From Archaeoglobales archaeon (GTDB lineage Archaea > Halobacteriota > Archaeoglobi > Archaeoglobales > Archaeoglobaceae), in NCBI GenBank assembly GCA_003662995.1, contig QMZC01000008.1:16197-40196 (forward strand): 24,000 nt of DNA, given 5' to 3'. The notes under the pieces are model-generated. The model was not told the origin of the DNA, ran no database searches, and worked only from the letters and a program-made list of their open reading frames with translations. Positions 9,222-24,000 of the stretch are shown here, one piece after another. A program made the translations under genes and the position numbers. Position 1 is the stretch's first letter; every line of letters starts with the position of its first letter.

Positions 9222-10955
9222 TCAACCAGTTATTTCATTCACGAGTTTAGCATAGTAATCTAAAGCCTCATCTATAAACCTTTTATCAAGCTTTCCATGT
9301 AACGTTTCTGTTTCGAGTATTCTTTTCGGTATTCTCAAAGATTTAACGTCAAATCCCATTTTCCTCTTCAATTTCAACTTCTCTGCGTAAATCTTGCTGC
9401 CTAACTCCAGAAGCCCATTCTCATCGATTTCAACACCCAGCGGTTTGAAAGCCTCAACGATAATTTCAGGCGTATATACTTTCCTTGCAAAGAAGCAGAC
9501 AACCAAACTCGATAAAACCTGTCTCCACTTCTCCTCCTCAATCAACTTATCCACGATGTCTTTTGGCTTCACTTCTTTAACCTTTTGGTCGATTGAGTAG
9601 CCTGCTGAGTCCAAATGACTATGCCTCAAACCGATTAAATAGCCAATGTGTGCCGCATAACCAGTGTGATATCCAGGCATCTCATTGCCACCAAATGCCA
9701 GTGCAAAATCCTTTCCACCATAAACTTCCGAGGCTTTTTCAACGCCTTGAGCAAGTATTTTGTAGAATTCAGTTGGTTGCTTAACAAGATAATCAACAGC
9801 CTTCAGATATGCTTCATAATCACCAAACAACAGCCTGACGACAGTATCCTCTTCAGAAATTAGTCCCTTCTCCAAAGCCTCAGTAGCCCAAGCCAAACAA
9901 ACGCCAGTGCTCATAGCATCCAAACCGTAAACCTCAACCCTGTGTATGAGCTTCAACAACCCCTCCCTCGAATGTATGCCGAGCATCGAACCTAATGCGT
10001 AAATCAACTCGTAATCGTAGGAGATCATTATCGTCTTGTAGAAGTATTTCTCCTGCTCGTAAGGCACTCTTAAGGCAGCTATGTGGATGCAAGCTATTGG
10101 GCAGTGATTGCAGGCAATACGCCTCCCCAAATTGTAGATTGCAAAGCTCTCACCACTAATTTCCTCAGCACCCTCAAACCTCGTTGATTTGAGATTCTTC
10201 GTTGGTAAACTTCTAAGCTCGTTGAGGGGCAAGATGTTTACAGCAGTCCCAATCAGATGGTACTTTTGCATCGCATCTGATTCAAGGGTAATCTTGTAGA
10301 TTTTGTCGTAGATTTCCCTGTAACCCTTCTTGTCTTTTGGCAAAACACTGCTCCTTCCAACCACAACCAACGCTTTCAGGTTTTTGCTTCCAAAAACAGC
10401 CCCCAAGCCTAACCTTCCAAAGTGTCTGTAGGTTTCAGTTGTAACGCAAGCATACCTTACAAGCTTTTCTCCTCCCCCACCGATTCTCATTACCGTCCTT
10501 ATACCCCTCCCTTCCTCCTTCTCCGCTATGATTCTTCCAACGATTAGTGAATCTTCTATGCCCCACAGAACCCTTGAATCCCTGAAGTGCACTTTGTCAT
10601 TTTCAATTACAATGTAGATGGGTTTTTTGCTCTTGCCTTTAATTACAACAGCTCCGTATCCTGCATTGGCTATGGCGGTAGCAGTTCTTCCACCAGCGTG
10701 GGATTCACCAAGGTTCTTTGTCAATGGGCTTTTGAACAAAGCTACGGTTTTAGATGCTAAAGGATATGCGGGTGTGAAAGGACCAACAGCAAAAACGATC
10801 ACGTTCTCTTCGCTTAGCGGATCAGATTTGGGATTCAATTCCTCTTTTAAAAGCTGTATTCCAACACCAACTCCGCCAATCCACTCCTCAAACAGATCTT
10901 TGCGATTTACGATTTCATACTTGTATTTCGACAAATCGATGTAAAGAACATTCAT
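9222..10955 (-). CDS. aor: Tungsten/molybdopterin aldehyde:ferredoxin oxidoreductase family enzyme (AOR/WOR-type)
   Basis: 577-aa ORF. AOR N-domain pattern: GGVGVGIQLL, DPLSEENVIVFAVGPFT, FKSPLTKNLGESHAGG, AGYGAVVIKGKS. Fe-S Cys motif: CNHCPIAC. GGAGG lies 8 nt upstream of the ATG. Confidence 0.9.
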   Translation of the reverse strand: MNVLYIDLSKYKYEIVNRKDLFEEWIGGVGVGIQLLKEELNPKSDPLSEENVIVFAVGPFTPAYPLASKTVALFKSPLTKNLGESHAGGRTATAIANAGYGAVVIKGKSKKPIYIVIENDKVHFRDSRVLWGIEDSLIVGRIIAEKEEGRGIRTVMRIGGGGEKLVRYACVTTETYRHFGRLGLGAVFGSKNLKALVVVGRSSVLPKDKKGYREIYDKIYKITLESDAMQKYHLIGTAVNILPLNELRSLPTKNLKSTRFEGAEEISGESFAIYNLGRRIACNHCPIACIHIAALRVPYEQEKYFYKTIMISYDYELIYALGSMLGIHSREGLLKLIHRVEVYGLDAMSTGVCLAWATEALEKGLISEEDTVVRLLFGDYEAYLKAVDYLVKQPTEFYKILAQGVEKASEVYGGKDFALAFGGNEMPGYHTGYAAHIGYLIGLRHSHLDSAGYSIDQKVKEVKPKDIVDKLIEEEKWRQVLSSLVVCFFARKVYTPEIIVEAFKPLGVEIDENGLLELGSKIYAEKLKLKRKMGFDVKSLRIPKRILETETLHGKLDKRFIDEALDYYAKLVNEITG

Positions 10956-11365
10956 GCTTCAACCTCCTGAAAAGCCAAAACATCGTGTGGGCAGTAATTT
11001 GCACAATAACCGCAATGAATGCAGACCGCTGGCTTTCCGTCTTGCCTCCTAAAAATTGCCCCGATTGTGCAAGCCTCCATGCAATTTCCACACGCTATAC
11101 ACAAATTCTCCACAAAAACAACTCCACCACCTTTCTTAGGCTTTAATGCATTCGTTGGGCAAACTTGAATGCATGGAGGGTCGATGCAAGCTCTGCAAAA
11201 GATCACTGTTGCACCTCTCTCAAATCCACTAAGGCTTATAGCAAGTATCCCTGATGAGTCGATGCCTATCTCAGGCTTTTTTGCAAACTTTCTTGCACAT
11301 GCGTACATGCAAAGGCTACAACCAACACACTTTTCAATATCCTTAATGACGAGGCGTTTTGTCAT
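10952..11365 (-). CDS. Four-motif 4Fe-4S ferredoxin-domain protein, partner of the AOR
   Basis: Four Cys motifs: CVGCSLCMYAC, CRACIDPPCIQVCP, CIACGNCMEAC, CIHCGYCANYCP. The stop overlaps the aor start (ATGA at 10955-10952 on the minus strand). The track start is TTG 11386. ATG 11365 (MTKRLVIKD) is favoured, with an A/T-rich TATA-like element about 28 nt upstream. Confidence 0.85.
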   Translation of the reverse strand: MTKRLVIKDIEKCVGCSLCMYACARKFAKKPEIGIDSSGILAISLSGFERGATVIFCRACIDPPCIQVCPTNALKPKKGGGVVFVENLCIACGNCMEACTIGAIFRRQDGKPAVCIHCGYCANYCPHDVLAFQEVEA

Positions 11366-11551
11366 TATAGAAAAATGGTTTGACAAAATTTAATTTTTTT
11401 GTTAAAATTTTCTAGACTTGGATTTGAAGTCCTCTCAAATTGGCTTAGGATGCAAGGAATTGTAGTGTTTAGACAATTTATAGATGAGTCTTTCAAATTT
11501 CATCGAGTATTTCAACGTATTTTAGAACTCTCATTTTTGCAATTACACTTT

Positions 11552-11675: not shown

Positions 11676-12314
11676 ATGAAGTGGAAAATAAGAAAAGATG
11701 AAAAAGGTTTTACTGGCTTGGAAGCAGCAATCGTACTAATAGCTTTTGTAGTGGTGGCAGCGGTCTTCAGCTATGTCATGCTGGGAGCAGGTTTCTTCAC
11801 AACGCAGAAGAGCAAGAAAGTTGTGGACACTGGTGTCAAACAAGCTAGCAGCTCATTAACGCTGGATGGGCAGTATATCTATCTGAACTGCAGTAGCGAT
11901 GCCAATGGCGAAACGGGTTCAAATGGTAAAGTTGGAAAAATTTACTTCTATGTCACACAAACTGCTGGTGGAACACCAGTAGATCTGAATAAAACATCCA
12001 TATCAATAACTACCGAGAACGGATACAAACAGCTGTTCTATAATGAGAGTGCCTGTACAGTTGGTAGTGGTGGCGATAATTGTCCATGGTGGTATGACGA
12101 CACAGTTGGTGATGGCGACAACGTTGTTGAACCAAATGAGAAATACAAGATCATAATCAATGTTAGCAATACAGATTATGACTGGACTTGGAGTGGGATA
12201 GGAGATTTGAATCCTAACGACGAAATCACAATTGAAGTACGCCCACCAATTGGTGCACCACTGACGATAACAAAAACGCTACCACCGAGCTTCACGAATT
12301 TAACGTATATCTGA
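11676..12314 (+). CDS. flaB1: Archaellin (archaeal flagellin) 1, class III signal peptide
   Basis: Leader MKWKIRKDEKG followed by FTGLEAAIVLIAFVVVAAVFSYVMLGAGFFTTQKSK. Five N-x-S/T sequons. First gene of the fla operon. Confidence 0.9.
   Translation: MKWKIRKDEKGFTGLEAAIVLIAFVVVAAVFSYVMLGAGFFTTQKSKKVVDTGVKQASSSLTLDGQYIYLNCSSDANGETGSNGKVGKIYFYVTQTAGGTPVDLNKTSISITTENGYKQLFYNESACTVGSGGDNCPWWYDDTVGDGDNVVEPNEKYKIIINVSNTDYDWTWSGIGDLNPNDEITIEVRPPIGAPLTITKTLPPSFTNLTYI
11693..11743 (+). repeat. 51-nt tract identical to 12342-12392 (5' ends of flaB1 and flaB2)
   Basis: AAAAGATGAAAAAGGTTTTACTGGCTTGGAAGCAGCAATCGTACTAATAGC is present in both genes, including all synonymous positions. Confidence 0.9.
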
Positions 12315-12324
12315 GGTGATGCCC

Positions 12325-12936
12325 ATGGTGTGGAAAATAGTAAAAGATGAAAAAGGTTTTACTGGCTTGGAAGCAGCAATCGTACTAATAGCGTTCGTCA
12401 CAGTTGCAGCAGTCTTCAGCTACGTATTGCTAGGAGCAGGTTTCTTTGCAACTCAGAAGGGTCAGGAAACTGTACATACTGGTGTCAAACAGGCTACTAG
12501 CAGCATGGAGCTTGTTGGATCAATAGTTGCTACAGGAAATATTTCTGCAAACAAAATTGAGAATGTTACGTTCACAATTCAGCTTGCAGCGGGTGGACAG
12601 TCGATTGACCTGAACAAGACAGTCATAACAGTTCTTGTTCCTTCAGACGGTGATTTCGTAGAGTTGACGTACAACAACAGCACGGATCTAGATAAGAGCT
12701 CAGACTATTATGTCAACTGGGTTTACAGTTTGCAGGGTGATAATCCTGACGACTACCTTGAAGAGTTTGAGAAGGCCGAAATTACCGTATATTTGGGGTG
12801 CACTGATGGTGCAGGCTTAAATATCGGCCCGAATGATGACTTCATAATTGAAGTTAAACCTCCAATCGGTGCAACGTATCCAATTGAGCTCAAGGCTCCA
12901 CCGGCCATCGACGATATAATGGTGCTGCTGAAGTAA
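12325..12936 (+). CDS. flaB2: Archaellin 2, class III signal peptide
   Basis: MVWKIVKDEKG followed by FTGLEAAIVLIAFVTVAAVFSYVLLGAGFFATQKGQ. The track start is GTG 12316. ATG 12325 is preferred by homology with the flaB1 leader and by GAGGTGAT (12313-12320) 4 nt upstream. Confidence 0.9.
   Translation: MVWKIVKDEKGFTGLEAAIVLIAFVTVAAVFSYVLLGAGFFATQKGQETVHTGVKQATSSMELVGSIVATGNISANKIENVTFTIQLAAGGQSIDLNKTVITVLVPSDGDFVELTYNNSTDLDKSSDYYVNWVYSLQGDNPDDYLEEFEKAEITVYLGCTDGAGLNIGPNDDFIIEVKPPIGATYPIELKAPPAIDDIMVLLK
12342..12392 (+). repeat. Second copy of the 51-nt identical tract (see 11693-11743)
   Basis: Exact identity read directly from the sequence. Confidence 0.9.
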
Positions 12937-12986: not shown

Positions 12987-13760
12987 ATGGAAAATCTCGA
13001 CCAATCAATGATAGACGACATAATCGCAAGTGCAGAATCAGATACTCCCGAATCCAAATTAGCTCAGCTTGAGGAGGAGATAACTGAGATAAAGGGTTCG
13101 ATAAAAAAGTTGCTGTTAGACATAAGGGAGACGATGAACCAACTGGAAAACCCGTTTCAAAGCCTATCCAGTTTGGCTGAAGGTGCATTAGGTGGAGCTC
13201 AAAAGGTTCAGGCTGTTCAGGTAATTCCACCTTACGTGGAGGAAGAGGAAGATAAAGACAAAGAAGTAAGAAAAGAGGAAAAAGATGAAAAGAAGGAAAA
13301 GGAGGAGGTGAGAGAAGAAAAGAAAGAGGAAAAGAGAGAAAAAATTGAAGAAACTGGAAGAACAAAAGGTGATACAAGATTTGAGCCTAGGTTTGAACCT
13401 AAGATTGACTACCATGCAGAAATAATCGAAAAACCAAAGTTGGAAGATTTGAAGAAATTCGATAAGATCAAACAGATCGATCCCCTTGCATTGTACAGCA
13501 TTATGGAATGGAGTAAAGAAATGTTAAGCAAATACAACAAAGAAACGATTAAAGAGTTGGTTGAAGTTTTTGAGATGGTTGGTTACATCACGCAGGAAGT
13601 TAGAGATATAGTGTTGAAGATAATTGAACTCATAAGTAGGAACGGCGATCTTGATAGGGCCGTTATTGATCTGTATAAATTGTACAACATCCTGAATCCT
13701 GAGGATATTAGTTTAGACTCCAAAGTTTTGAAGTTGCTTTTGAGTAATGAGAGATCTTAG
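12987..13760 (+). CDS. flaD/E: Archaellum accessory protein FlaD/E-like (ArlD/E)
   Basis: The C-terminal block DPLALYSIMEWSKEMLSKYNKETIKELVEVFEMVGYITQEVRDIVLKIIELI matches my recollection of the conserved FlaD/E domain. There is an N-terminal coiled coil and a central K/E-rich low-complexity stretch. The gene sits between the archaellins and flaG. Confidence 0.7.
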   Translation: MENLDQSMIDDIIASAESDTPESKLAQLEEEITEIKGSIKKLLLDIRETMNQLENPFQSLSSLAEGALGGAQKVQAVQVIPPYVEEEEDKDKEVRKEEKDEKKEKEEVREEKKEEKREKIEETGRTKGDTRFEPRFEPKIDYHAEIIEKPKLEDLKKFDKIKQIDPLALYSIMEWSKEMLSKYNKETIKELVEVFEMVGYITQEVRDIVLKIIELISRNGDLDRAVIDLYKLYNILNPEDISLDSKVLKLLLSNERS

Positions 13761-13768
13761 GTGTCAAT

Positions 13769-14257
13769 ATGGCGAGGGAGGTTATTACAACAGCTTTGCT
13801 GGCGATAGCAAGCATTATAGCTGTTGCAGCTTTAATCAAAGCTGCAATTCCATCGATTCATAGCATGGCTGGTACGTTTAACTCCCTCGCCGAAAATATG
13901 GAAGAGAGAATTGAGACGAATGTAGATATAATTTTTATTAGCGTTAATAGTGGTAAGGATACTGTCTATATCTGGGTTAAAAATATTGGTAATAATAAAA
14001 TTCCTGTTGGTTATGTAAATAAGAGTGATTTGTTCATCTATTCGTCATCAAATTATTGGCACGTCTTGTTTAATTCCGCATCGCATCCCACTTGGGATTA
14101 TGAGTTCGAGAACGGAGATGGAGATAATTACTGGGAAACTGGCGAAACAATAAAAATCACTGTCCAATTCGGAAGTGCATTGAGCAGTGATGAATATACA
14201 GCAGATTTTATTCTCTACAATGGAATCTCGACGTCTGATATTTTCTCAGTGGGGTGA
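13769..14257 (+). CDS. flaG: Archaellum protein FlaG-like (ArlG)
   Basis: 162 aa. N-terminal hydrophobic helix EVITTALLAIASIIAVAALIKAAIP followed by a beta-rich domain. Operon position is before flaF. The G versus F assignment rests on the N-terminal pattern and gene order. Confidence 0.65.
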   Translation: MAREVITTALLAIASIIAVAALIKAAIPSIHSMAGTFNSLAENMEERIETNVDIIFISVNSGKDTVYIWVKNIGNNKIPVGYVNKSDLFIYSSSNYWHVLFNSASHPTWDYEFENGDGDNYWETGETIKITVQFGSALSSDEYTADFILYNGISTSDIFSVG

Positions 14258-14261
14258 TTCT

Positions 14262-14741
14262 ATGGGATTCGATACGATTATCGTATCGATAATATCAATT
14301 GCGATGATTCTTGTAATCGCTTATTCCTTCGTTATGGAAACGGACAATATTGTAGATAGCGTACATACAGGTTTTAATTCTCTACATAAAACTACAATAA
14401 AGAGAATTCACACCGACATAAGCATCGAAAACATCCGTTGGAATCTTACTGGAAACAAGCACTTGTACATCAATGTGACAAACACCGGAGATACAAAAAT
14501 CAGCGATTACAGTTTGTGGGATGTAGTTTTGATTAAAAATGGTGTGGTTGAATATCTCGATTACGATACAGATTGGGATGTGTATGCATTCTACAACGAC
14601 ACAATTAACCCGAACATTCTCGATCCATCTGAAACGCTTGAAATTAGGATTTTGAGAACATTCAATTCGGGTGATGTTGTTTGGATTGAAGTTTCAACGC
14701 CGAATGGCGTTGTTGCTGCAAAAAGGTATGTGGTGGGGTGA
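14262..14741 (+). CDS. flaF: Archaellum protein FlaF-like (ArlF)
   Basis: Starts MGFDTIIVSIISIAMILVIAYSF, the MGF- start typical of FlaF as I recall, followed by a beta-rich domain. The track start 14187 would overlap flaG by 71 nt. ATG 14262 lies 4 nt after the flaG stop. Confidence 0.65.
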   Translation: MGFDTIIVSIISIAMILVIAYSFVMETDNIVDSVHTGFNSLHKTTIKRIHTDISIENIRWNLTGNKHLYINVTNTGDTKISDYSLWDVVLIKNGVVEYLDYDTDWDVYAFYNDTINPNILDPSETLEIRILRTFNSGDVVWIEVSTPNGVVAAKRYVVG

Positions 14742-14746
14742 TAACC

Positions 14747-15472
14747 ATGTTGGAGGATATAGAGGAGGAATTAAAAAAGAACATACTTTCAAGCGGAAAT
14801 ACTGAAATAGACAAGAGGCTGGGTGAAGGAATTCCATTGGGCTCATTGACGCTCATAGAAGGTGAAAACGATACTGGAAAGAGTGTGATGTGTCAGCAGT
14901 TCATGTATGGTGGTTTAAGGCAGGGACATTGTATCGCTTATTACACCACAGAAAACACAATAAAAAGTTTACTGGCTCAGATGGAGAGTCTGAGCTTAGA
15001 CGTCTCTGATTTTTATGCTTGGGGATACTTGAGGATATTCCCAATGCATCTGGAAGGAATGGACTGGACGCACGAGCAGATGAGGAGTATTTTAACCTTA
15101 ATAGCAGATCACATAAAGAGCGTTAGAGAAAACGTGGCAATTATAGACTCATTGACGATGTTCACGACTTATTCTGAGGAGGATGACATTCTTGAATTTT
15201 TAACAAAACTAAAGAACTTTTGCGATAGAGGGAAGACGATACTTATCACCTTACACCAACACGCATTCAAGGAGGATACGTTGGTTAGAATAAGATCAGC
15301 CTGTGATTGCCACCTTTTCTTGAGAAAGGAGCAGGTTGGTGATAGGTATGTCAGTGTCTTAGAAGTTGCAAAGATAAGAGGAGCTAAAAAGACAACGGGA
15401 AACATCGTCAGTTTTGAAGTTCAGCCAGGATTTGGTCTTAAGATCATACCGATTTCGCAAGCTCAAACCTAA
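14747..15472 (+). CDS. flaH: Archaellum RecA/KaiC-like ATP-binding protein FlaH (ArlH)
   Basis: Walker A GENDTGKS and Walker B-like VAIIDSL. Size is about 240 aa. An alternative GTG start at 14738 overlaps the flaF stop (GTGA). Confidence 0.85.
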   Translation: MLEDIEEELKKNILSSGNTEIDKRLGEGIPLGSLTLIEGENDTGKSVMCQQFMYGGLRQGHCIAYYTTENTIKSLLAQMESLSLDVSDFYAWGYLRIFPMHLEGMDWTHEQMRSILTLIADHIKSVRENVAIIDSLTMFTTYSEEDDILEFLTKLKNFCDRGKTILITLHQHAFKEDTLVRIRSACDCHLFLRKEQVGDRYVSVLEVAKIRGAKKTTGNIVSFEVQPGFGLKIIPISQAQT

Positions 15473-15531: not shown

Positions 15532-17385
15532 ATGGCAACTGCTGCTGCCGAGAAGATCGACTTCAGTATGAAGCCCAAGGGGCTTAAGGCAGGAGTAGTT
15601 GCCAATTTCCCCTTCACACCGAAAAGGTATGATGATCACGATCACACAAATCTGAAAACATGTGGAATTTACAAACTACTTCCAAAACCGATGAAAAAGG
15701 AAGTGGAGAAGAATTTACATTTGTTAGAATACCTGCACATTCTACCTTTGGATAAAATTGGAATTCCGAAGTACTTTCCCAAATTAGAGAAAAAGCATGG
15801 AGAAATGGAGAATCCGAACCTGATATATCCTGCGAGTGAACAAATTTACATTCATATCTACCCCGACAAAAACGATGTCAGAAATTTCTACATCCCCATA
15901 GAGCCGACGCTGCTCACAGGTGTGGAGGAATTGGTTAAAGAGGTTGAGATCAGACTGGTTGATTATCTCACAGACATAGACTTTGACCCTTCAGATTCAG
16001 AGGAGAAGGAGAAAATCTTGAAAAAGGCGTTGAGGGAGATATGCGTAATTACAAATGGCAGGAAAGTTGATGAATTCATCAACGACAATGGTGGGTTTTT
16101 AAAGCTGTTTGTTAAAAGCAAGGACAATGGAAATGGCATGAATGACAAAATATACGTTACAAGGGAGCAGTTTAAAGCTTTAGAGTACGCGATAATAAGG
16201 GATAAGGTTGGTTTAGGGGTTCTTGAGCCTTATATTAGGGATAAGTACATTGAAGATATTACTTGCAATGGGCTCGGTCCAATATTCATTGAACACAAGG
16301 TTTTCAAGGGATTGAAGAGTGTAATTGAGTTTAGAGAAGAAGAGACGCTTAACAAATTCATAATAAGGCTTGCAGAGAGGATAGGAAAGCCCATAACGTA
16401 TAAAGACCCCATTGTCGATGCAACGTTGCCTGATGGGTCGAGAATTAACATAGTTTATGGAACGGACATAAGCAGAAATGGCAGTAATTTCACCATAAGA
16501 AAGTTCAATGAGACGCCATTCAGTGTTTTGCAGATTATTGAGAGTGGAACGATGGACTACATGATTGCTGGCTACTTGTGGCTTTTAATTTCTGAGGGTA
16601 TGAGTGGATTTATATGCGGTGAAACGGCAAGCGGTAAAACAACCACACTCAACGCCATTACCGCATTCATCTCTCCTGATGCAAAGGTTGTTTCAATTGA
16701 AGATACTCCCGAATTGCAAGTTCCACACAAAAACTGGACGAGAGAGGTTACAAGAGGTAGCACTAGGGGTGGCGCAATCGGAGAGGGGAGCGGTTCAGAC
16801 GTTACAATGTTTGATCTGCTGAAAGCGGCTTTGAGGCAGAGACCGAACTATATACTGGTTGGTGAGATCAGAGGTGTTGAGGGCAACATAGCATTTCAGG
16901 CTATGCAAACTGGACACCCTGTCATGTCCACATTCCATGCAGCCACTGTTGAGAAGCTTATACAGAGACTTACCGCTGAACCGATAAATGTTCCAAAGAC
17001 GTACATTGACAACTTAAACTTCGTTTTAATCCAAAGTGCGGTTAGGAGACCCGATGGAAAGCTTGTAAGGAGGGTCTTGAGTGTTAATGAGATCGTTGGC
17101 TACAATCCGCAAAAAGGTGGTGTATCGTTCATTGAAGCGTTCTCGTGGGATCCTGTTACGGACACGCATGTTTTCAATGGTTATGGTACCTCTTACTTGT
17201 TGGAACAAAAAATTGCGACGAGGCTTGGCATTCCAGCAAGTAAGAAGAGAGTGATTTACGAAGAGGTTGAAAAAAGGGCAAAGATCCTGCAAAAATTACA
17301 TGAAGAAGGGGTCACGAATTTCTACGATTTATTCCACACTTTGGCGAAGATTAGAAAGAGTGGATTGCTCAAAATACAGTTTTAG
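15532..17385 (+). CDS. flaI: Archaellum motor ATPase FlaI (ArlI), type II/IV secretion ATPase superfamily
   Basis: Walker A GETASGKTTTLNA, Walker B region NYILVGEIRG, His box TGHPVMSTFHA, and N-terminal IYPxxxxxxYxIxEP-type motifs. Confidence 0.95.
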   Translation: MATAAAEKIDFSMKPKGLKAGVVANFPFTPKRYDDHDHTNLKTCGIYKLLPKPMKKEVEKNLHLLEYLHILPLDKIGIPKYFPKLEKKHGEMENPNLIYPASEQIYIHIYPDKNDVRNFYIPIEPTLLTGVEELVKEVEIRLVDYLTDIDFDPSDSEEKEKILKKALREICVITNGRKVDEFINDNGGFLKLFVKSKDNGNGMNDKIYVTREQFKALEYAIIRDKVGLGVLEPYIRDKYIEDITCNGLGPIFIEHKVFKGLKSVIEFREEETLNKFIIRLAERIGKPITYKDPIVDATLPDGSRINIVYGTDISRNGSNFTIRKFNETPFSVLQIIESGTMDYMIAGYLWLLISEGMSGFICGETASGKTTTLNAITAFISPDAKVVSIEDTPELQVPHKNWTREVTRGSTRGGAIGEGSGSDVTMFDLLKAALRQRPNYILVGEIRGVEGNIAFQAMQTGHPVMSTFHAATVEKLIQRLTAEPINVPKTYIDNLNFVLIQSAVRRPDGKLVRRVLSVNEIVGYNPQKGGVSFIEAFSWDPVTDTHVFNGYGTSYLLEQKIATRLGIPASKKRVIYEEVEKRAKILQKLHEEGVTNFYDLFHTLAKIRKSGLLKIQF

Positions 17386-17393
17386 GTGATTTC

Positions 17394-19025
17394 ATGGAAG
17401 TAGCAACGATAAAAAAGTTTAGATTCGGAAGGAAAAAAGAAGAAAGCAAGGGCCTATTCCAAGGTATCCTTGAGAGAATAAAGACTCTAAAAGAAGAACT
17501 CTACATGGATAATGATTTACTTTTTATACTTACTTACATGGCTTCCATTTCTACAGCTCAAATAAGCAGAGACAAAATCTTTGAAAAAACTTCTGAAAAA
17601 AGAGAGTATGCGCCAAGCAAGTACTTCAGTAAAATTAAAGACTTGGCGCAGAAATGGCACTATGATTATGCTACAGCCTGTGAATTGATAGCAAGGAAGG
17701 TCAAGCATGAAAGGGTGAAAAATTTGCTAAATCGATTTTCGAATGCGATTTCAGCAGGAGAACCAGATAGGGAGTTTCTAGAAAAGGAATGGAAAGTATT
17801 CAAGACTGTAAGAAAGGATGAATTCGAGAGGTGTTTGGAATCTTTAAGAAAGTGGACTGATGCCTATACGGCGTTAACGGTTTCAACATCCTTGGTTTCA
17901 ATAGTAATTCTGTTATCGGTAATAATATACAAAGTTGGCGATCCTGCCCAGACTTTGTACACAACTGCGTTTTTCATACTTTTAATATCGTTTATGGGTG
18001 TGGCGTTGCTTTACAAATCTGTTCCAAAGGATGTAAAAACCCATAATTTGAGAATAAAGTCAAGAGAACAGAGAATTGTTGCAAAATGGATGCCAGTCTC
18101 ACTCATAATTTCATTACTGCTTATTTTTTTGATGAGTGTAATCCCGACGTTTTTCAATCCGGAAATGTTTGTTTTCAACGGCATAGATTTAAAAGGGTTT
18201 GGGTTAATCTCGGCAGGTTTGGTAATGCTTCCGGTTGGATTTGTTGGGAGAAACGATGATATAAAGATAAGTAAACGTGATGAAAGTTTTACCGTATTTA
18301 TACGAAACTTAGGGGCGATAGTGAGTGGTGCAGGTTTGTCAATTGCTGAAGCTCTGACAAAGATAGATCAGAAGAACTTGGGAGAGCTTAAAGATTTGGC
18401 GTATCAACTTTATAAGCGATTGGCTATGGGATTAGATCCAAAGCTCTGCTGGGAGAAGTTTATCGGTGAGAGCGGCAGTTATTTGATACACAAGTTAACG
18501 AGCATATTTGTTGATGCTGTTGATTTGGGTGGAGATGCGGACGTTATAGGCGACTTGGTCAGTTCTTCAAATTTAGAGATGGTCTTGCTAAGAATGAAAA
18601 GGGATTTGATTTCTTCGGGTTTCATAAGTTTAGTAATACCACTGCACTTAGCTATGGTATCTCTGTTGCTGTTCATATCCCAAATATTGACAATTTTTAC
18701 CAAGCTGATTACAACTCTGTTCTCGCAATACAGTATATCGGGTGAGAAATTGAAAAACGTTCCGGGTATCGTTGGTGGCATGAACATAGGCATCTTCAGT
18801 GGCATCCCATTGGACTTGCTGTACCAATACACTCTCGTTGTTGTGTTGATCATAACTACGGCAAACATTTTTGCAGCAAAGATAGTAAAGGGAGGGGCAA
18901 CCTATATGATATTCTACTATGGTGCAATACTCTGCATCCTATCTGGAATTGCGATGATCGTTATTCCGCCAGCAGTGAGCATGGCTTTCACGTTTCCATC
19001 GTTTGTGGAAGGAGGAGGTGGTTAA
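17394..19025 (+). CDS. flaJ: Archaellum polytopic membrane platform protein FlaJ (ArlJ), GspF/TadC-like
   Basis: 543 aa. The two cytoplasmic domains (e.g. LNRFSNAISAGEPDREFLEKEWKVF) alternate with multiple TM helices. AGGTGA lies upstream of the ATG. The gene follows flaI directly. Confidence 0.85.
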   Translation: MEVATIKKFRFGRKKEESKGLFQGILERIKTLKEELYMDNDLLFILTYMASISTAQISRDKIFEKTSEKREYAPSKYFSKIKDLAQKWHYDYATACELIARKVKHERVKNLLNRFSNAISAGEPDREFLEKEWKVFKTVRKDEFERCLESLRKWTDAYTALTVSTSLVSIVILLSVIIYKVGDPAQTLYTTAFFILLISFMGVALLYKSVPKDVKTHNLRIKSREQRIVAKWMPVSLIISLLLIFLMSVIPTFFNPEMFVFNGIDLKGFGLISAGLVMLPVGFVGRNDDIKISKRDESFTVFIRNLGAIVSGAGLSIAEALTKIDQKNLGELKDLAYQLYKRLAMGLDPKLCWEKFIGESGSYLIHKLTSIFVDAVDLGGDADVIGDLVSSSNLEMVLLRMKRDLISSGFISLVIPLHLAMVSLLLFISQILTIFTKLITTLFSQYSISGEKLKNVPGIVGGMNIGIFSGIPLDLLYQYTLVVVLIITTANIFAAKIVKGGATYMIFYYGAILCILSGIAMIVIPPAVSMAFTFPSFVEGGGG

Positions 19026-19027
19026 AT

Positions 19028-19879
19028 TTGGATGTTAGTATAATTGTGGGATTGATAATGGCTGGAGGAGCAATTGGTGGTGCAACCTTGTATGACAAAC
19101 TGAAGAATGAGGGCAAAATAAAGGTCGATTTCAGCAGTAAACTTGAAAAGATAAACAAAAAATTTGAAAGAATAAATAAGTTGGATAAATTAAAGATAAA
19201 GAAAGGCGAAAGTTCTGAGGACAAATTTGGTAAGAGTATAAGCATAGAGAAACTCAAAAATAAAATGGGGTTGTTCAGTAAAATTTCTGATAAGCTCAGC
19301 AACATCTCTTTAAAAAAACCAACTTTCAATCTGAGTAAAGCCGCTAGGGAAGATAAACTAAAAGAGATCGACGAGAAACTGAAAGAAGTTGTGGAAGAAA
19401 CTCCAAAACCGGTGGAGAAAGTTGTAGAACTTGATTCGCAAGAAGTTGATAAAGTTCTTGAAGAAAAGAAAGAGGAATTTGCAATTGAAGATAATCTGAT
19501 CGACGAGATGGAGACCGCTACGTCATTGGAGCAAGATTCGATTTCTGAAATGGACATAAAAGAGGAGGATTTGGAGGGATTAAACGCAGACATAACAATA
19601 GACACCGATGAGCTGGAAGCTGAATTCGGATTTGATGTGGATGAACGACAGGAGGCCGAGATGATTGCAGAAACGGATACTGCTGAAGAGATCGAGTTCG
19701 ATGAAAAAGACGCTTTATTAGCTTCTTTAGAAAAAGAAATAACTGTTAAGAAAGAAGAGAAATTGGATTTACTAAGAGATTTGAGAAATGAGAACTTAGA
19801 CGTTAAGGAGATTGAAAGAGAGCTTAAAGAAGTGTTGGAGATACTCAATCAATTTAAGGGAAAGGTTGCAAAAGCTTGA
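19028..19879 (+). CDS. Uncharacterised N-terminally membrane-anchored protein with a basic then a strongly acidic coiled-coil region, translationally coupled to flaJ
   Basis: TTG start 7 nt after GGAGGAGGTG (19011-19020), which lies inside the last flaJ codons, and 2 nt after the flaJ stop. TM/glycine-zipper VSIIVGLIMAGGAIGGATLY. A K-rich segment spans about residues 23-110, then an E/D-rich segment runs to the end. I recognise no family. Confidence 0.7.
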   Translation: MDVSIIVGLIMAGGAIGGATLYDKLKNEGKIKVDFSSKLEKINKKFERINKLDKLKIKKGESSEDKFGKSISIEKLKNKMGLFSKISDKLSNISLKKPTFNLSKAAREDKLKEIDEKLKEVVEETPKPVEKVVELDSQEVDKVLEEKKEEFAIEDNLIDEMETATSLEQDSISEMDIKEEDLEGLNADITIDTDELEAEFGFDVDERQEAEMIAETDTAEEIEFDEKDALLASLEKEITVKKEEKLDLLRDLRNENLDVKEIERELKEVLEILNQFKGKVAKA

Positions 19880-19944
19880 AATTGCAAAATTGAAATTTCA
19901 TTTTTAAAGGAAATTTATTTATATTTGGATTAATAATTTAAAAT

Positions 19945-20015: not shown

Positions 20016-20306
20016 TTATTTAAATCTTAAAGCAAGAAGTTCGTCAAGTTCGTCCAGCAAGTTTTTACCCTTCGATGTAATATAAAAATACTCGTTATTC
20101 TTGCCGATTAATTCTAATTTTTTTAAGTTTTCTATCTGCCTATGAATTATCAATGGCTTTAATCTCGTTTTGATATACAATTGGGAAAATCTCAATTCCT
20201 CCTCTTTTAGGCTCATTAAAATTTTTATTGCACTTTCACTCCTTATAGCCCTATCTGTTTGTGCAGTTTGTGCCCTTTCCGATTCAGAAGGGCTTTGAAC
20301 GGGCAT
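20016..20306 (-). CDS. Small winged-helix DNA-binding protein, divergent from the third archaellin gene
   Basis: 96 aa. A Ser/Gln/Ala/Arg-rich N-terminal tail is followed by AIKILMSLKEEELRFSQLYIKTRLKPLIIHRQIENLKKLELIGKNNEYFYITSKGKNLL (helix-turn-helix plus beta wing pattern). Confidence 0.65.
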   Translation of the reverse strand: MPVQSPSESERAQTAQTDRAIRSESAIKILMSLKEEELRFSQLYIKTRLKPLIIHRQIENLKKLELIGKNNEYFYITSKGKNLLDELDELLALRFK

Positions 20307-20483: not shown

Positions 20484-21431
20484 ATGCCAAATTCTGATGG
20501 TGCTTTCACAGGACTCGAAGCATCCATAGTTTTAATAGCGTTTGTTGTAGTTGGAGCAGTTTTTGGATACACCATACTTGGCTCGGGATTCTTTACCGCA
20601 CAAAAATCAAAGAGTATTGTAGTCAATGGCGTCAAACAAGCATCAGCTTCACTTGTTTTAGATGGGCAGTATATATACCTCGCATGTGACCCAACAGGTT
20701 CCAGTGGTTGTGTCAATACCATATATTTTTATGTGACACAATCAGCAGGCGGAGCAAGTGTGGATTTAGAAAAGGCATCAATTGCTGTTATAACCAAAGA
20801 TGGCTATGAACAGAAACCCTACACAAGTGGTGTAACTCCCATTATTGCAGGCAATGTTACTAACAACATCACACTAAACACACAGGGGCTATACTTAATT
20901 GGCAGTACAGCATATCCTCCGTCGGGCTGTGAACCTCTTGTAGTGTACATTACAGCATTCTTGAGAAATACCAAAAACACATCGCTTACTGGCGATATAG
21001 CCTTGTACATTAACAGTAGTAAAAAGACCGTTTCAAGCATAGAAGGTACAAGCTCAAATGTTACCGCAACGATTGTTGATGGAAAAGTTAGAGTTGCAGT
21101 AGAAGCTGAGAAGGATGGGTGGGTTACATTCAGTTACATACTTACAGTCCCTGGATGTTATGCTGTGAGTGCTGGGAATTCCACACATCGATACATAGAT
21201 GACCAAGTATGCGTTGGTAATTGGTGGTGGTATCAGCCAATCATTGGGGACAGTGATGGAATTGTAGAGGCGAATGAAAAATACAAAATAGAGATCAACG
21301 TGCAGTGCTGGGACGTAGGGACTATTACACCAGACGAAGTTTTAACAATTGAATTGAGACCTGCAGTCGGTGCACCACTCGTAATAACTAAGCAATTACC
21401 GCCAAGCTTTTTAAAGTTGACCTACGTGTAA
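20484..21431 (+). CDS. flaB3: Archaellin paralogue with a ~120-residue internal insertion and an atypical short leader
   Basis: MPNSDGA followed by FTGLEASIVLIAFVVVGAVFGYTILGSGFFTAQKSK. The core blocks are shared with FlaB1: LDGQYIYL, IYFYVTQSAGG, WWY, VEANEKYKIEINV, TIELRPAVGAPLVITKQLPPSFLKLTYV. The extra block spans about residues 113-240. Confidence 0.85.
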   Translation: MPNSDGAFTGLEASIVLIAFVVVGAVFGYTILGSGFFTAQKSKSIVVNGVKQASASLVLDGQYIYLACDPTGSSGCVNTIYFYVTQSAGGASVDLEKASIAVITKDGYEQKPYTSGVTPIIAGNVTNNITLNTQGLYLIGSTAYPPSGCEPLVVYITAFLRNTKNTSLTGDIALYINSSKKTVSSIEGTSSNVTATIVDGKVRVAVEAEKDGWVTFSYILTVPGCYAVSAGNSTHRYIDDQVCVGNWWWYQPIIGDSDGIVEANEKYKIEINVQCWDVGTITPDEVLTIELRPAVGAPLVITKQLPPSFLKLTYV

Positions 21432-21618: not shown

Positions 21619-24000
21619 ATGATAAATGCAGAGAAAATGGAAGTAAAGGGTAAGAAGGCAAGAAACTCAAAGAGCAAAGATAAACGGATATCCGAATTGG
21701 AAGACGAGGTCAATAGATTAAACGCTCTTCTGAATGAAAAAGAAAAGGAGATTCAAAGGGAGAAGGAGGTTGTTGAGCAGGCATACAAGTTTATGGAGTT
21801 GCTTGCAAGAAACATGCCCCCACCGGTGTACTTCTTGTACACTGACAAAGACGGAAAAATCAGGTATGCAAATGATGAGCTGGCAAAACTTGCCGGCTAT
21901 AATGATGCGAACGACATAATTGGTAAAAGTCCATCCGAAATCTTTTACGTCAAAGAAGGAAAACTTACTGTAGCAGAGAAGGTCATAAAGACAGGAAAAC
22001 CCGTTTTAAACAGAGAAGTACCAACCAAACTCGTAAATGGTGCGGAAATAGTAGCGTTGGTTTCTTGCGTTCCAATTACAGTCAATGGTGAGGTAATTGG
22101 TTCTCTCGGAGTTTTTACTGATATAACTGAATTAAAGGAGAAAGAGAAAGAGATACGCGAGACCAGCGCAAAAAATGAAGCTATACTCAAAGCTCTACCA
22201 GATGCGGTGTTTGCGGTAGACTCAGACAGGAATGTGATCTACTGGACAGAACAGGCTGAGAAATTGACGGGATATGGTGAAAACGAAGCTTTGAAAATGA
22301 AGGGTTACGAAATATTTGGAACCAATGGAAAATGCAAGGTTTGTGAGGCGGCAATTAGAGCTATGGAAAACAACATAACAGTTGAGAATGTAGAGACGGT
22401 TTTCACAACAAAAAATGGGATTGAAACACCCATATTGGTAAATGCCTCACCTTTGACAGATGCTGATGGAAACATAACCGGAGCTTTAGTCGTTGTCAAG
22501 GATATCACAACTTTGAAGGAGAAGGAGAAGGAAATTGAAGAGGTAATTAATAAGATACCCGTCTCTCTGATTGTTCTCGACAAAGAGCACAAGATTGCAT
22601 ACTGGAACAAAGCGATGGAAGACATGTCAGGATACAAGGCTGAGGAAATGATCGGAACAAAGAGACAGTGGGAGCCGTTTTACGACAACGAAAGACCTAT
22701 TCTGGCTGATATTGTAATGGAAAATCCAGAAGATGCACACAAATACTATACAAATATCAAGAAATCGCACCTCGTTGATGGAGCATTCTTTGCTGAAGGC
22801 TCATTCACATTTAACGGAAAATTGAGGCATCTCAGATTTACAGCAGCTCCGATTTATGGAGCTAAAGGGGAAATCATAGGGGCTGTGGAGACTTTGGAAG
22901 ATGTTACTGATTTGAAAAAGAGAGAAAAAGAGATGCAGAGGATTTTAGATTTTGTTGAAAGATTATTCAAAGAAATGCCATACCCTGCATACGTACTGTT
23001 TGTTGACAAAGATCACAAGATAAGGTACGCAAACAATGAATTGGCAAAACTTGCCGGCTATAATGATGCGAACGACATAATTGGTAAAAGTCCATCTGAA
23101 ATATTCCAAACAGAAGGGACCAGAACGATAGCAGACAAAGTAATAGAATCAGGAGAAGCTGTTTACAACCTGCAAGCTGTAACAAAAACCAAGCACGGGA
23201 AAGAAATCCCTATTTTGGTATCTTGTGTGCCTATACACGATAAAGAAGGGAATCTACTTGGAGTACTTGATTTGTTTACAGACATCTCTGAAATAAAAGA
23301 GAAAGAAAAGGAAATTCAAGAAATGCTTGATTATACTAATCGCTGTCTCGAAAAGATTGGAAAAGCTTTGAAGGAATTGGAAGCTGGGAATCTGGATGTT
23401 AGATTGGAAAAAGAGAAAGATGATGAATTTGGCAAAACGTTCGACACGTTTAACGAATTTTCTGAAAGGCTCAAGGAAATCATAAAAGATGTGACTGAAG
23501 GGATGAAAACTACTGCTGAGGAAGTAAAAGAGGCTAATGAGGCTGTAAATCAAATGAATGCTGGAATGCAGCAGATCTCATCAGCAGCCCAGCAAATTGC
23601 TACTGGATCAGAGAACTTATCGAAGCTCGCTAATGCATCGGCTGCTGATTTAAAATCAGCTGAGGAAATATTTAAAGACTTAAGCGATGCTTCATCAAGG
23701 TCGGCAGATTACGCCTCTCAGGCAGTACATAATTCAGAGGAGGTCAAAGAGAAAGGTGGCGAAGCTCTTAGAAAACTTGAAGTAATTATAAAAGAGGTTG
23801 AAAAAACAGCGGAAATAGTAGATTCATTGAACAATGCAGTAAGAAACATAGGAAAGGTAACGGAGAAAATCAAATCAATAGCAGACCAAACAAACTTACT
23901 AGCATTGAATGCTGCAATAGAAGCTGCCAGAGCAGGAGAACATGGAAGAGGGTTTGCTGTTGTTGCTGATGAGGTTAGGAAGTTGGCTGAGGAGAGCAGA
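21619..24000 (+). CDS. Soluble methyl-accepting chemotaxis protein with four tandem PAS domains, a HAMP-like linker and an MCP signalling domain (3' end beyond the window)
   Basis: ATG 21619 lies 5 nt after GGAGGTG. The frame is open for 794 codons to the window edge. The supplied track lists no ORF in this frame. No TM segment. There are four PAS-like modules. The canonical hairpin-tip sequence [41 protein letters not shown] lies at 23881-24000. Confidence 0.9.
21881..21935 (+). repeat. 55-nt tract identical to 23042-23096 (PAS1 versus PAS4 of the MCP gene)
   Basis: TGGCAAAACTTGCCGGCTATAATGATGCGAACGACATAATTGGTAAAAGTCCATC occurs in both places. The flanks are clearly diverged. Confidence 0.9.
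23042..23096 (+). repeat. Second copy of the 55-nt identical tract (see 21881-21935)
   Basis: Exact identity read directly. Identity extends to 61 nt with one mismatch. Confidence 0.9.

Follow-up and report, generated by a model that had tools for sequence, protein, structure and literature searches.

A previously unnamed protein family encoded after arlJ in archaellum operons of Archaeoglobi and methanogens

What does an archaellum operon of an Archaeoglobales archaeon encode directly after its platform gene, and does the product belong to the swimming motor? The question arises in a stretch of 24,000 nucleotides (nt) from contig QMZC01000008.1 (assembly GCA_003662995.1, positions 16,197 to 40,196 of the forward strand; hereafter the window), where the platform gene flaJ (arlJ) is followed by a 283-codon open reading frame (ORF), here called gene X. 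An earlier note on this DNA, made without database searches, had described X as an uncharacterised gene coupled to flaJ and as a membrane-anchored coiled-coil protein with a FlaX-like architecture, possibly a motor scaffold or stator-like component. The first description is borne out and extended by conservation of the gene in this type of operon, and the second holds in part. X is a genuine gene, maintained by purifying selection and linked to arlJ in every locus examined; its product is oriented N-out/C-in with an anchor, a linker and a terminal hairpin. The X family is a new, previously unnamed protein family within a known machine. The gene and its flanking signals are as follows, with positions counted from the first letter of the window and the last two features read from sequence only.

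19028–19879, + strand: gene X, 283 codons, start TTG, stop TGA (19877–19879), following arlJ
19011–19022, + strand: Shine-Dalgarno (SD)-like GGAGGAGGTGGT, within the 3′ end of flaJ
19901–19905, + strand: T5 run, 22 nt past the X stop in an A/T-rich spacer

X lies downstream of flaJ in all 37 loci obtained from look-ups and genomes (L001–L037). An exact-protein look-up with three homologues returned nine loci, each with X directly after flaJ (8-nt overlap or 11-nt gap) and with the archaellum genes arranged as flaB, flaC-D/E-like, G, F, H, I, J, X. When a single genome of each GTDB species was scanned, 20 loci were recovered, all from metagenome-assembled genomes (MAGs) and, where the taxon is named, from Archaeoglobi; X is downstream of flaJ in the same operon in 20/20. 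Distant members that were checked individually also stand directly after flaJ, namely P0074 (Methanosarcinaceae), P0061 and P0062 (unplaced methanogen-like lineages), P0038 (a subfamily like that of the window), P0055 (Methanoregulaceae) and P0059. For the reverse test, 80 metagenome loci were retrieved with a FlaJ profile, the closest FlaJ being 75% identical to that of the window and coming from a marine-sediment metagenome. Every flaJ at least ~55% identical to the window’s and with enough downstream DNA was accompanied by X (~41 loci), and the X-less exceptions at this level of identity are contigs that end too early. X matches were weaker where flaJ was 42–45% identical, and there were none at 34–41%. 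Given enough DNA, X adjoins or overlaps flaJ unless a DUF4352 gene intervenes. The earlier note would have counted its proposal as refuted if relatives had no such ORF conserved after flaJ; they do have it, and the finding therefore stands unrefuted. The post-flaJ place in every Archaeoglobi and methanogen locus examined thus makes X very likely to be a hitherto unrecognised accessory part of the swimming motor.

The X family is small and evolves under constraint. A single-sequence search with X (phmmer) found 14 homologues of 200–244 amino acids (aa) at E values of 1e-10 to 1e-15, those with a named source coming from Archaeoglobaceae or Archaeoglobales MAGs. A family profile run against 1.84 billion cluster representatives reached 44 clusters at E ≤ 1e-3; with only 44 representative clusters among so many, the family is rare. 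Profile matches of its members are as strong as 1e-85 (window X, 2.7e-59). Named members are GACE_0661 of Geoglobus acetivorans, Asulf_00849 of Archaeoglobus sulfaticallidus and WP_042686989.1 of Methermicoccus shengliensis; one Methanosarcinaceae MAG and one Methanoregulaceae MAG contribute further members, and all source-named taxa are Archaeoglobi, Methanosarcinales or Methanoregulaceae. The similarity of window X to the family spans its whole length, taking in both the EEKLKEIDKKLEEV helix and, at the C-terminus, the FDExDxLL...DLLRDLKG...EELExEL hairpin. Among 32 family pairs, the ratio of nonsynonymous to synonymous substitution rates (dN/dS, Nei-Gojobori NG86) ran from 0.05 to 0.41, with the median at 0.20. 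Named members are annotated as ‘hypothetical protein’ and, sometimes by JGI, as ‘chromosome segregation ATPase’, a label taken to be a spurious charged-repeat artefact. Pfam, NCBIfam and PDB searches gave no family match for window X or for 30 diverse members, in line with the earlier failure to assign it. Scattered sub-threshold Pfam and NCBIfam matches (Ribonuc_2-5A, NirdL-like_HTH, SDE2 and others) were rejected as low-complexity noise. The best PDB profile match, a Babesia surface antigen at E 0.13, was also rejected.

The SD of X lies within the end of flaJ. The flaJ stop (TAA, 19023–19025) precedes the TTG by 2 nt, and the ORF list and the sequence agree on the coordinates first given for X. 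As had also been noticed, the SD-like GGAGGAGGTGGT is made of the codons for the E-G-G-G-G tail of FlaJ; it ends 5 nt before the TTG, and its core, GGAGGTG (19014–19020), leaves a spacer of 7 nt. An SD-like GGAGGTG, GGGGTG, GAGGTG or GAGGGG stands directly 5′ of the X start in 8/8 loci inspected, where the gap to the preceding gene ranges from -8 to +11 nt. TTG 19028 is supported as the start by the homologues P0038 and P0040, whose own ATG (‘MDV...’) stands at the corresponding place. In a public record, the same protein is called from an internal ATG (P0002, 273 aa, 19058–19879), which drops the first 10 residues, half of the transmembrane (TM) helix; this start is probably mis-called. Antisense to X runs a 286-aa ORF (18988–19848, - strand) rich in Ser, Leu and Phe, which mirrors the Glu/Lys-rich X; it is a shadow ORF and no gene, the conservation and dN/dS evidence concerning the + strand frame. 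A scan for bacterial-type terminators 3′ of X found none on the + strand, and Rfam and tRNA scans of the window gave no match. Oligo-T is a transcription termination signal in archaea, and the T5 run is a candidate for one, in which case X would be the last gene of the operon here.

The product of X divides into six segments, all encoded on the + strand.

19034–19093, + strand: N-terminal TM helix, residues 3–22 (Kyte-Doolittle peak 1.99; AlphaFold2 (AF2) helix 3–27)
19094–19333, + strand: Lys-rich juxtamembrane region, residues 23–102, with recurring [DENS]KL motifs
19334–19399, + strand: conserved helix 1, residues 103–124, SKAAREDKLKEIDEKLKEVVEE; family motif EEKLKEIDKKLEEV
19415–19516, + strand: second conserved helical region, residues 130–163, EK.V.L ... 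F.v..dLl.EM.T.
19517–19687, + strand: acidic linker, residues 164–220, poorly conserved, net charge -6 to -8 per 20 residues
19688–19876, + strand: C-terminal helix-turn-helix hairpin, residues 221–283, EIEFDEKDALLASLEKEITVKKEEKLDLLRDLRNENLDVKEIERELKEVLEILNQFKGKVAKA

The single N-terminal TM helix proposed earlier is supported by hydropathy, the 19-residue maximum lying at residue 3, and leaves an extracellular stub of only 2 residues. Family-wide architecture was assessed in 57 unique proteins extracted from 78 loci. An N-terminal TM helix with an acidic or neutral flank before it and a basic one behind it is found in 56 of them and a second hydrophobic or TM segment in none; the flank before the helix lacks K or R in most members, and the mean net charge is -0.75 ahead of the helix, +3.9 over the 30 residues that follow it and -22 over the remainder. 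The positive-inside, nearly all-cytoplasmic topology first suggested for X thus holds across the 57 homologues. The glycine zipper does not extend in the same way, being lineage-specific, with G8 alone nearly invariant in the family. X as an archaeal type IV pilin or archaellin was also considered and rejected, given the charge of this N-flank and the absence of an Arch_flagellin or Pilin_N match in window X; one distant family member has a sub-threshold Pilin_N match (E 0.01).

Behind the helix, the Lys-rich segment was correctly picked out as a motif-rich block, with nine [DENS]KL motifs against 1.7 expected, a number that 0/5000 shuffles reach, and by charge profile it extends to about residue 105. 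It is not a general feature, since alignments show that ~65 of its residues are an insertion limited to one subfamily; the insertion is carried by window X, by P0038 and P0040 (whose long basic linkers are similar to that of window X) and by longer methanogen forms, and is missing from the canonical members of ~200 aa. Its origin as a duplication of the conserved EKLKEIDKKL helix was rejected, there being no significant internal match. Helix 1 has invariant columns at E108, E113, D115 and L118 and is modelled by AF2 as a helix at residues 104–124, with a predicted local distance difference test score (pLDDT) of 68–81. The second region, in which E130 and L157 are invariant and K131, L135, E160 and M161 nearly so, is modelled as helices 137–150 and 155–174 at a pLDDT of about 50–60.

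The remainder of X is strongly acidic, as originally stated, its net charge lying between -3 and -8 in each stretch of 20 residues over about residues 111–240. Within it, the linker differs in length and sequence across the family alignment and falls below a pLDDT of 50 (X residues 172–223; equivalent residues 100–150 of P0011); it is probably disordered. The C-terminal hairpin is the best-conserved part of the family (FDE.D.LL..L.KE....EEE.DLLRDLKG.KF..EELE.EL), with D228, E244, D247, L248, L249, R250, L252 and E261 invariant and with AF2 helices 225–254 and 259–282 at a pLDDT of 73–82 (75–88 for the P0011 equivalent). The predicted template modelling score (pTM) is 0.18–0.19 in both AF2 models (X and P0011), which therefore contain no globular fold; Foldseek comparison of both with the PDB gave 0 matches, a search that is uninformative because of the same low pTM. 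The best heptad score of X, 0.725, equals the 95th percentile of shuffles, and high scores are confined to the C-terminal end (the last ~28 residues; ~249–283). Judged by these models, X is not a long coiled coil, its helices being interrupted and its middle disordered; the description of its last ~170 residues as heptad-like or coiled-coil is not sustained.

The reach of the hairpin was followed into loci whose flaJ is only ~34–41% identical to that of the window, where other charged, non-globular ORFs follow flaJ. A profile of the last 75 residues of the X family was searched against 6344 six-frame ORFs of the retrieved loci. The only matches outside the family were small acidic proteins of L090 (E 0.0011) and L104 (E 0.0063), with noise beginning at E 0.63, and on repeating the search L108 and L109 were gained as well (E 0.006); the C-terminal module is thus common to three distinct small acidic TM-less proteins (L090, L104 and L108/L109). 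Judging from sequence comparison, the conserved unit appears to be a C-terminal hairpin encoded beside arlJ, carried on a TM anchor in the X family and on none in some lineages. The existence of TM-less relatives of the module speaks against the membrane anchor as the defining feature.

Small acidic post-flaJ proteins of 133–153 aa are encoded at L090:5489–5908, L104:5467–5868, L108:2703–3164 and L111:4396–4821. A larger post-flaJ protein, type B, has 274–347 aa and no TM segment, and is found in L088–L102, L113 and L116 (for example, L089:5652–6476), with the pattern MGGNRMNALKDLRINGLKNL...EEISEFPWREEIFPP...DLIEELL.SDDL.PEEEQ.FMKYL. A relationship between X and type B was not accepted; hhalign placed their C-termini in register, but at E 0.33. 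The X-type locus L067 and the type-B locus L089 lie on one contig, consistent with the two archaellum loci described in Methanosarcina (PMC4858521).

The archaellum operon of the window is complete, lies on the + strand and consists of the following genes before X.

11676–12314 and 12316–12936, + strand: two archaellin genes, at the operon start
12987–13760, + strand: FlaC-D/E-like gene, 257 aa, soluble product (Pfam Arch_fla_DE, E 5e-4), in the ArlX/ArlCDE slot
13769–14257, + strand: arlG (NCBIfam best match ArlG, 8e-10, below curated cut-off; Pfam Arch_flagellin)
about 14262–14741, + strand: arlF (NCBIfam best match ArlF, 8e-10, below curated cut-off; Pfam Arch_flagellin)
14738–15472, + strand: arlH, KaiC-like (Pfam)
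15532–17385, + strand: arlI, T2SSE ATPase (Pfam)
17394–19025, + strand: flaJ/arlJ, platform protein of 543 aa (NCBIfam ArlJ/FlaJ NF004703, E 1.8e-230; Pfam T2SSF)

These best matches, though below curated cut-offs for arlG and arlF, uphold the order arlG before arlF and the single FlaD/E-like gene reported in the earlier note. The product of 12987–13760 has a conserved N-terminal helix with a weak FlaC_arch match, a low-complexity Glu/Lys linker and an Arch_fla_DE domain, and it looks like a compact FlaC-D/E fusion. Arch_fla_DE matched 7/8 of its orthologues (best 1.2e-6), FlaC_arch matched 3/8 weakly, and one orthologue gave a weak match to the Pfam ArlX model PF24151 (E 0.21). The statement that the operon has no flaC is therefore right only in part, given the weak FlaC-like N-terminus of the FlaD/E-like protein in 3/8 members. 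No TM segment is seen in the sequence of this protein. The ArlX/ArlCDE role and gene slot belong to 12987–13760 and not to X. The arlF ORF as listed runs from GTG 14187 to 14741 and overlaps arlG by 71 nt; its likely start is ATG 14262, 4 nt past the arlG stop and before a hydrophobic MGFDTIIVSII.

Beyond X, the window encodes a divergent winged-helix regulator (20016–20306, - strand; HTH_45/ArsR-like), a third archaellin of 315 aa with a ~100-aa insertion relative to the two operon archaellins (20484–21431, + strand) and a multi-PAS chemoreceptor (methyl-accepting chemotaxis protein, MCP) that continues beyond the window end (21619–24000, + strand). In L004, too, the operon is succeeded by a similar winged helix-turn-helix (wHTH) gene, and in L037 by a wHTH gene and then a PAS protein. 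Upstream of the operon are a 577-aa ORF resembling aldehyde:ferredoxin oxidoreductases (9222–10955, - strand) and a 144-aa Cys-rich ferredoxin-like ORF (10952–11386, - strand), both judged from their sequences alone.

Our favoured reading, held tentatively and at somewhat less than an even chance, is that X is an unnamed accessory subunit of the archaellum basal complex, tethered in the membrane beside ArlJ, with its hairpin holding a cytoplasmic part of the motor. The operon that carries it is of an arlG-arlF type common to Archaeoglobi and several lineages of methanogens. X would be made alongside ArlJ through translational coupling on a shared mRNA, and would insert with an N-terminus of 2–7 residues outside and a single TM helix. 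The basic juxtamembrane segment would then lie at the inner membrane face beside the ArlJ platform, and the flexible acidic linker, of about 50–100 residues, would extend the conserved two-helix hairpin into the cytoplasm, where it could dock on the cytoplasmic domains of ArlJ, on ArlH/ArlI or on the soluble FlaC-D/E-like protein. The net effect would be to tether or organise cytoplasmic motor parts at the membrane. Physical association of X with ArlJ, a docking role for the hairpin and any scaffold function are what we infer. In the review passages on ArlCDE (PMC10117864), no membrane anchor is named; as the FlaC-D/E-like protein also has no TM segment, a membrane tether would fill a gap. A further-reaching version, in which X or its hairpin is the link fastening an ArlCDE-type ring, and possibly the polar cap, to ArlJ in archaella of the Archaeoglobi and methanogen type, so that X would be an independently evolved ArlX analogue and a core motor or stator-anchoring element, strikes us as rather unlikely.

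Several observations weigh against an accessory subunit. X is homologous neither to ArlX or FlaC/D/E nor to any solved structure, and the TM-less relatives of its C-terminal module show that TM anchoring is dispensable in some lineages. In the flaJ clade at ~40% identity, the different charged ORF of type B takes its place, with non-significant similarity. The genes that follow X are regulatory and differ between loci (a DHp-like gene, a histidine kinase with a response regulator, a cheF/che operon or a wHTH gene), which a signalling role would fit equally well. The family is also missing from the well-studied motile models, and for this reason no X phenotype is on record.

These neighbours deserve description. 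In most Archaeoglobaceae loci, a gene of 202–215 aa, here g2, overlaps the X stop by 4–17 nt (for example, L001:10618–11226, L004:10719–11366 and L007:7256–7864). It has no Pfam or NCBIfam match bar a faint HisKA, and in its H-box-like motif (SDKLRNPL/ADKLRNPL) Asp replaces the phospho-accepting His; from these sequence features, g2 may be a degenerate DHp-domain partner of X. In L037–L039, a histidine kinase follows X, and L037 continues with a response regulator, a wHTH gene, a PAS gene and cheW-cheF-cheY-cheB-cheA; g2 as a truncated copy of the L037 kinase was rejected, there being no BLAST similarity. In L118, X is followed by cheF-cheY-cheB-cheA-cheC-cheD. In one Archaeoglobi subgroup, a 213-aa DUF4352 (PF11611) gene separates flaJ from X (L010:7186–7827), equivalent flaJ-X gaps of ~650 bp occur in L013, L015, L023, L026 and L028, and most loci of this type lack g2. 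The window locus has neither the DUF4352 gene nor g2, and neither g2 nor the kinase of L037–L039 was found elsewhere in the window. A ~52-aa protein of the AF_1457 family (PF27291) is encoded just beyond X in Archaeoglobaceae and Methanosarcinaceae loci, as at L001:11216–11374 (- strand, after g2) and L035:8341–8502 (+ strand). Among families of small membrane proteins, arCOG04995 (example gi 11499052) has been called ‘likely associated with archaellum’ (Makarova et al. 2016).

With this setting in view, X could instead be a membrane-anchored regulatory or signalling adaptor whose hairpin recruits CheF/CheY, g2 or the kinase and response regulator and so modulates archaellum assembly or rotation. 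X does stand at the boundary between motor and regulatory genes: it overlaps g2, with its degenerate HisKA-like H-box, in most Archaeoglobaceae loci, precedes a histidine kinase in L037–L039 and che genes in L037 and L118, and in the window is followed by the wHTH gene, the extra archaellin and the PAS-MCP. A long disordered acidic linker ending in a docking helix is, moreover, typical of adaptors. Set against this, the downstream partners vary by lineage, with g2 and the kinase both missing in the window, arlJ is the sole invariant neighbour and is translationally coupled to X, and X contains no recognisable signalling domain. We consider an adaptor of this kind unlikely.

Two further alternatives look still less probable. 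X might be a tether or positioning factor between the motor and membrane on one side and the euryarchaeal polar cap, or some polar landmark, on the other, its linker spanning ~35–45 nm. According to the review section on the cap, this structure lies 35–44 nm below the motors and its composition is unknown (PMC10117864). The membrane anchor of X, its extended and disordered linker, which varies in length, and the conserved docking module at the far end would suit such a span, and A. fulgidus is described as monopolar and polytrichous. The argument proceeds from architecture alone, however, and its about 60–100 disordered residues would bridge the gap only at full extension; the family, with 44 clusters only, is not represented in Thermococcales or haloarchaea, the groups in which polar caps have been described. 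A polar-cap tether is, on balance, a doubtful proposition. Comparably doubtful is a role for X in helping ArlJ or pre-archaellins to insert or assemble, as a chaperone acting in biogenesis only and outside the finished motor. The tight translational coupling to arlJ, the small size and missing globular fold of X and its position closing the core operon in every locus are in keeping with such a helper; its conservation peaks, however, in the distal cytoplasmic hairpin and not in the TM helix by which X would touch ArlJ, and TM-less relatives exist.

Finally, the Lys/Glu-rich composition of X, the overlapping 286-aa antisense ORF and the lack of a family annotation might suggest an ORF that arose by chance and has no function, such as low-complexity read-through, or else a passenger unrelated to motility. 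This idea is effectively refuted by conservation and selection, with homologues across archaeal classes that share invariant motifs, a dN/dS of about 0.2, a constant post-flaJ position in about 100 loci and an SD-like motif kept 5′ of the start.

X is therefore put forward as a new candidate archaellum component in Archaeoglobi, Methanosarcinales and one Methanoregulaceae MAG, with testable interaction hypotheses. Its reach is limited by a narrow taxonomy outside the main genetic motility models and by a function that is conjectural, and public annotation of the family is uninformative and sometimes cuts the TM helix. The current archaellum models, as summarised in the relevant part of a review, have ArlX for Crenarchaeota and ArlCDE for Euryarchaeota and leave open the membrane fixing of the euryarchaeal ring and the composition of the polar cap (PMC10117864). 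A 2021 review and a 2026 census of archaeal type IV filaments (10.64898/2026.04.22.720090) likewise assign ArlX to Crenarchaeota/Thermoproteota and ArlCDE to Euryarchaeota. The X gene is mentioned neither in the passages of the review that do so nor in the archaellum section of the census, and a literature search with locus tags and accessions of the named family members found no paper.

Among known families, arCOG04976, as given in a table entry that proposes no function for it, resembles X in outline. It is associated with archaellin neighbourhoods and has one TM segment, with 13 proteins in 10 organisms and a 274-aa member in Methanosarcina barkeri. Size, TM count and taxon range fit X or its methanogen relatives, but the comparison is by table entry only and 274 aa fits the type B protein of L089 equally well; arCOG04976 may thus be the X family or its type-B neighbour. 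A more distant parallel is offered by GspL/GspM and PilN/PilO, small single-pass partners of the platform of type IV filaments that are encoded beside platform and ATPase genes, carry periplasmic ferredoxin-like domains and are thought to link the platform, the ATPase and outer parts. X, unlike these, is almost wholly cytoplasmic, and no sequence or fold similarity to them was found.

Homology to FlaX, for which the earlier note had suggested a search, finds no support. In window X, Pfam hmmscan at E ≤ 1 gave no match to ArlX (PF24151), FlaC_arch (PF05377) or Arch_fla_DE (PF04659) and only three unrelated weak matches; ArlX, FlaC and FlaD/E are likewise absent from the best 25 of 42 Pfam families matched by 30 X-family members. 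X as a paralogue of the operon’s own FlaC-D/E-like protein was rejected after a profile-profile comparison, in which hhalign of family against family gave a probability of 0.1% (E 0.55). FlaX itself is reported to have remote homology to the FlaD/E family (Makarova et al. 2016). Lacking sequence or profile similarity and occupying a different gene slot, X thus belongs to neither the ArlX nor the FlaC/D/E families. With ArlC/D/E it shares the character of a charged, helical archaellum-operon accessory protein confined to Euryarchaeota, with cheF/che genes nearby. ArlCDE are soluble, whereas X is membrane-anchored; and as X and the FlaC-D/E-like protein occur in the same operon, X is no substitute for the latter.

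ArlX/FlaX (PF24151; arCOG07206), which forms large rings and binds ArlH/ArlI, differs from X in the place of its gene, which lies between the archaellin gene(s) and arlG and not after arlJ, and in its build, as X lacks an extended coiled coil and has a long acidic linker that is disordered in the models. Both are nevertheless charged, helical proteins of about 250 aa encoded in archaellum operons with arlG before arlF, and both are anchored by one N-terminal TM helix and lie mostly in the cytoplasm (for X, from hydropathy and positive-inside charge in the window protein and the 57 homologues). By analogy, the role proposed here for X would resemble that of crenarchaeal ArlX.

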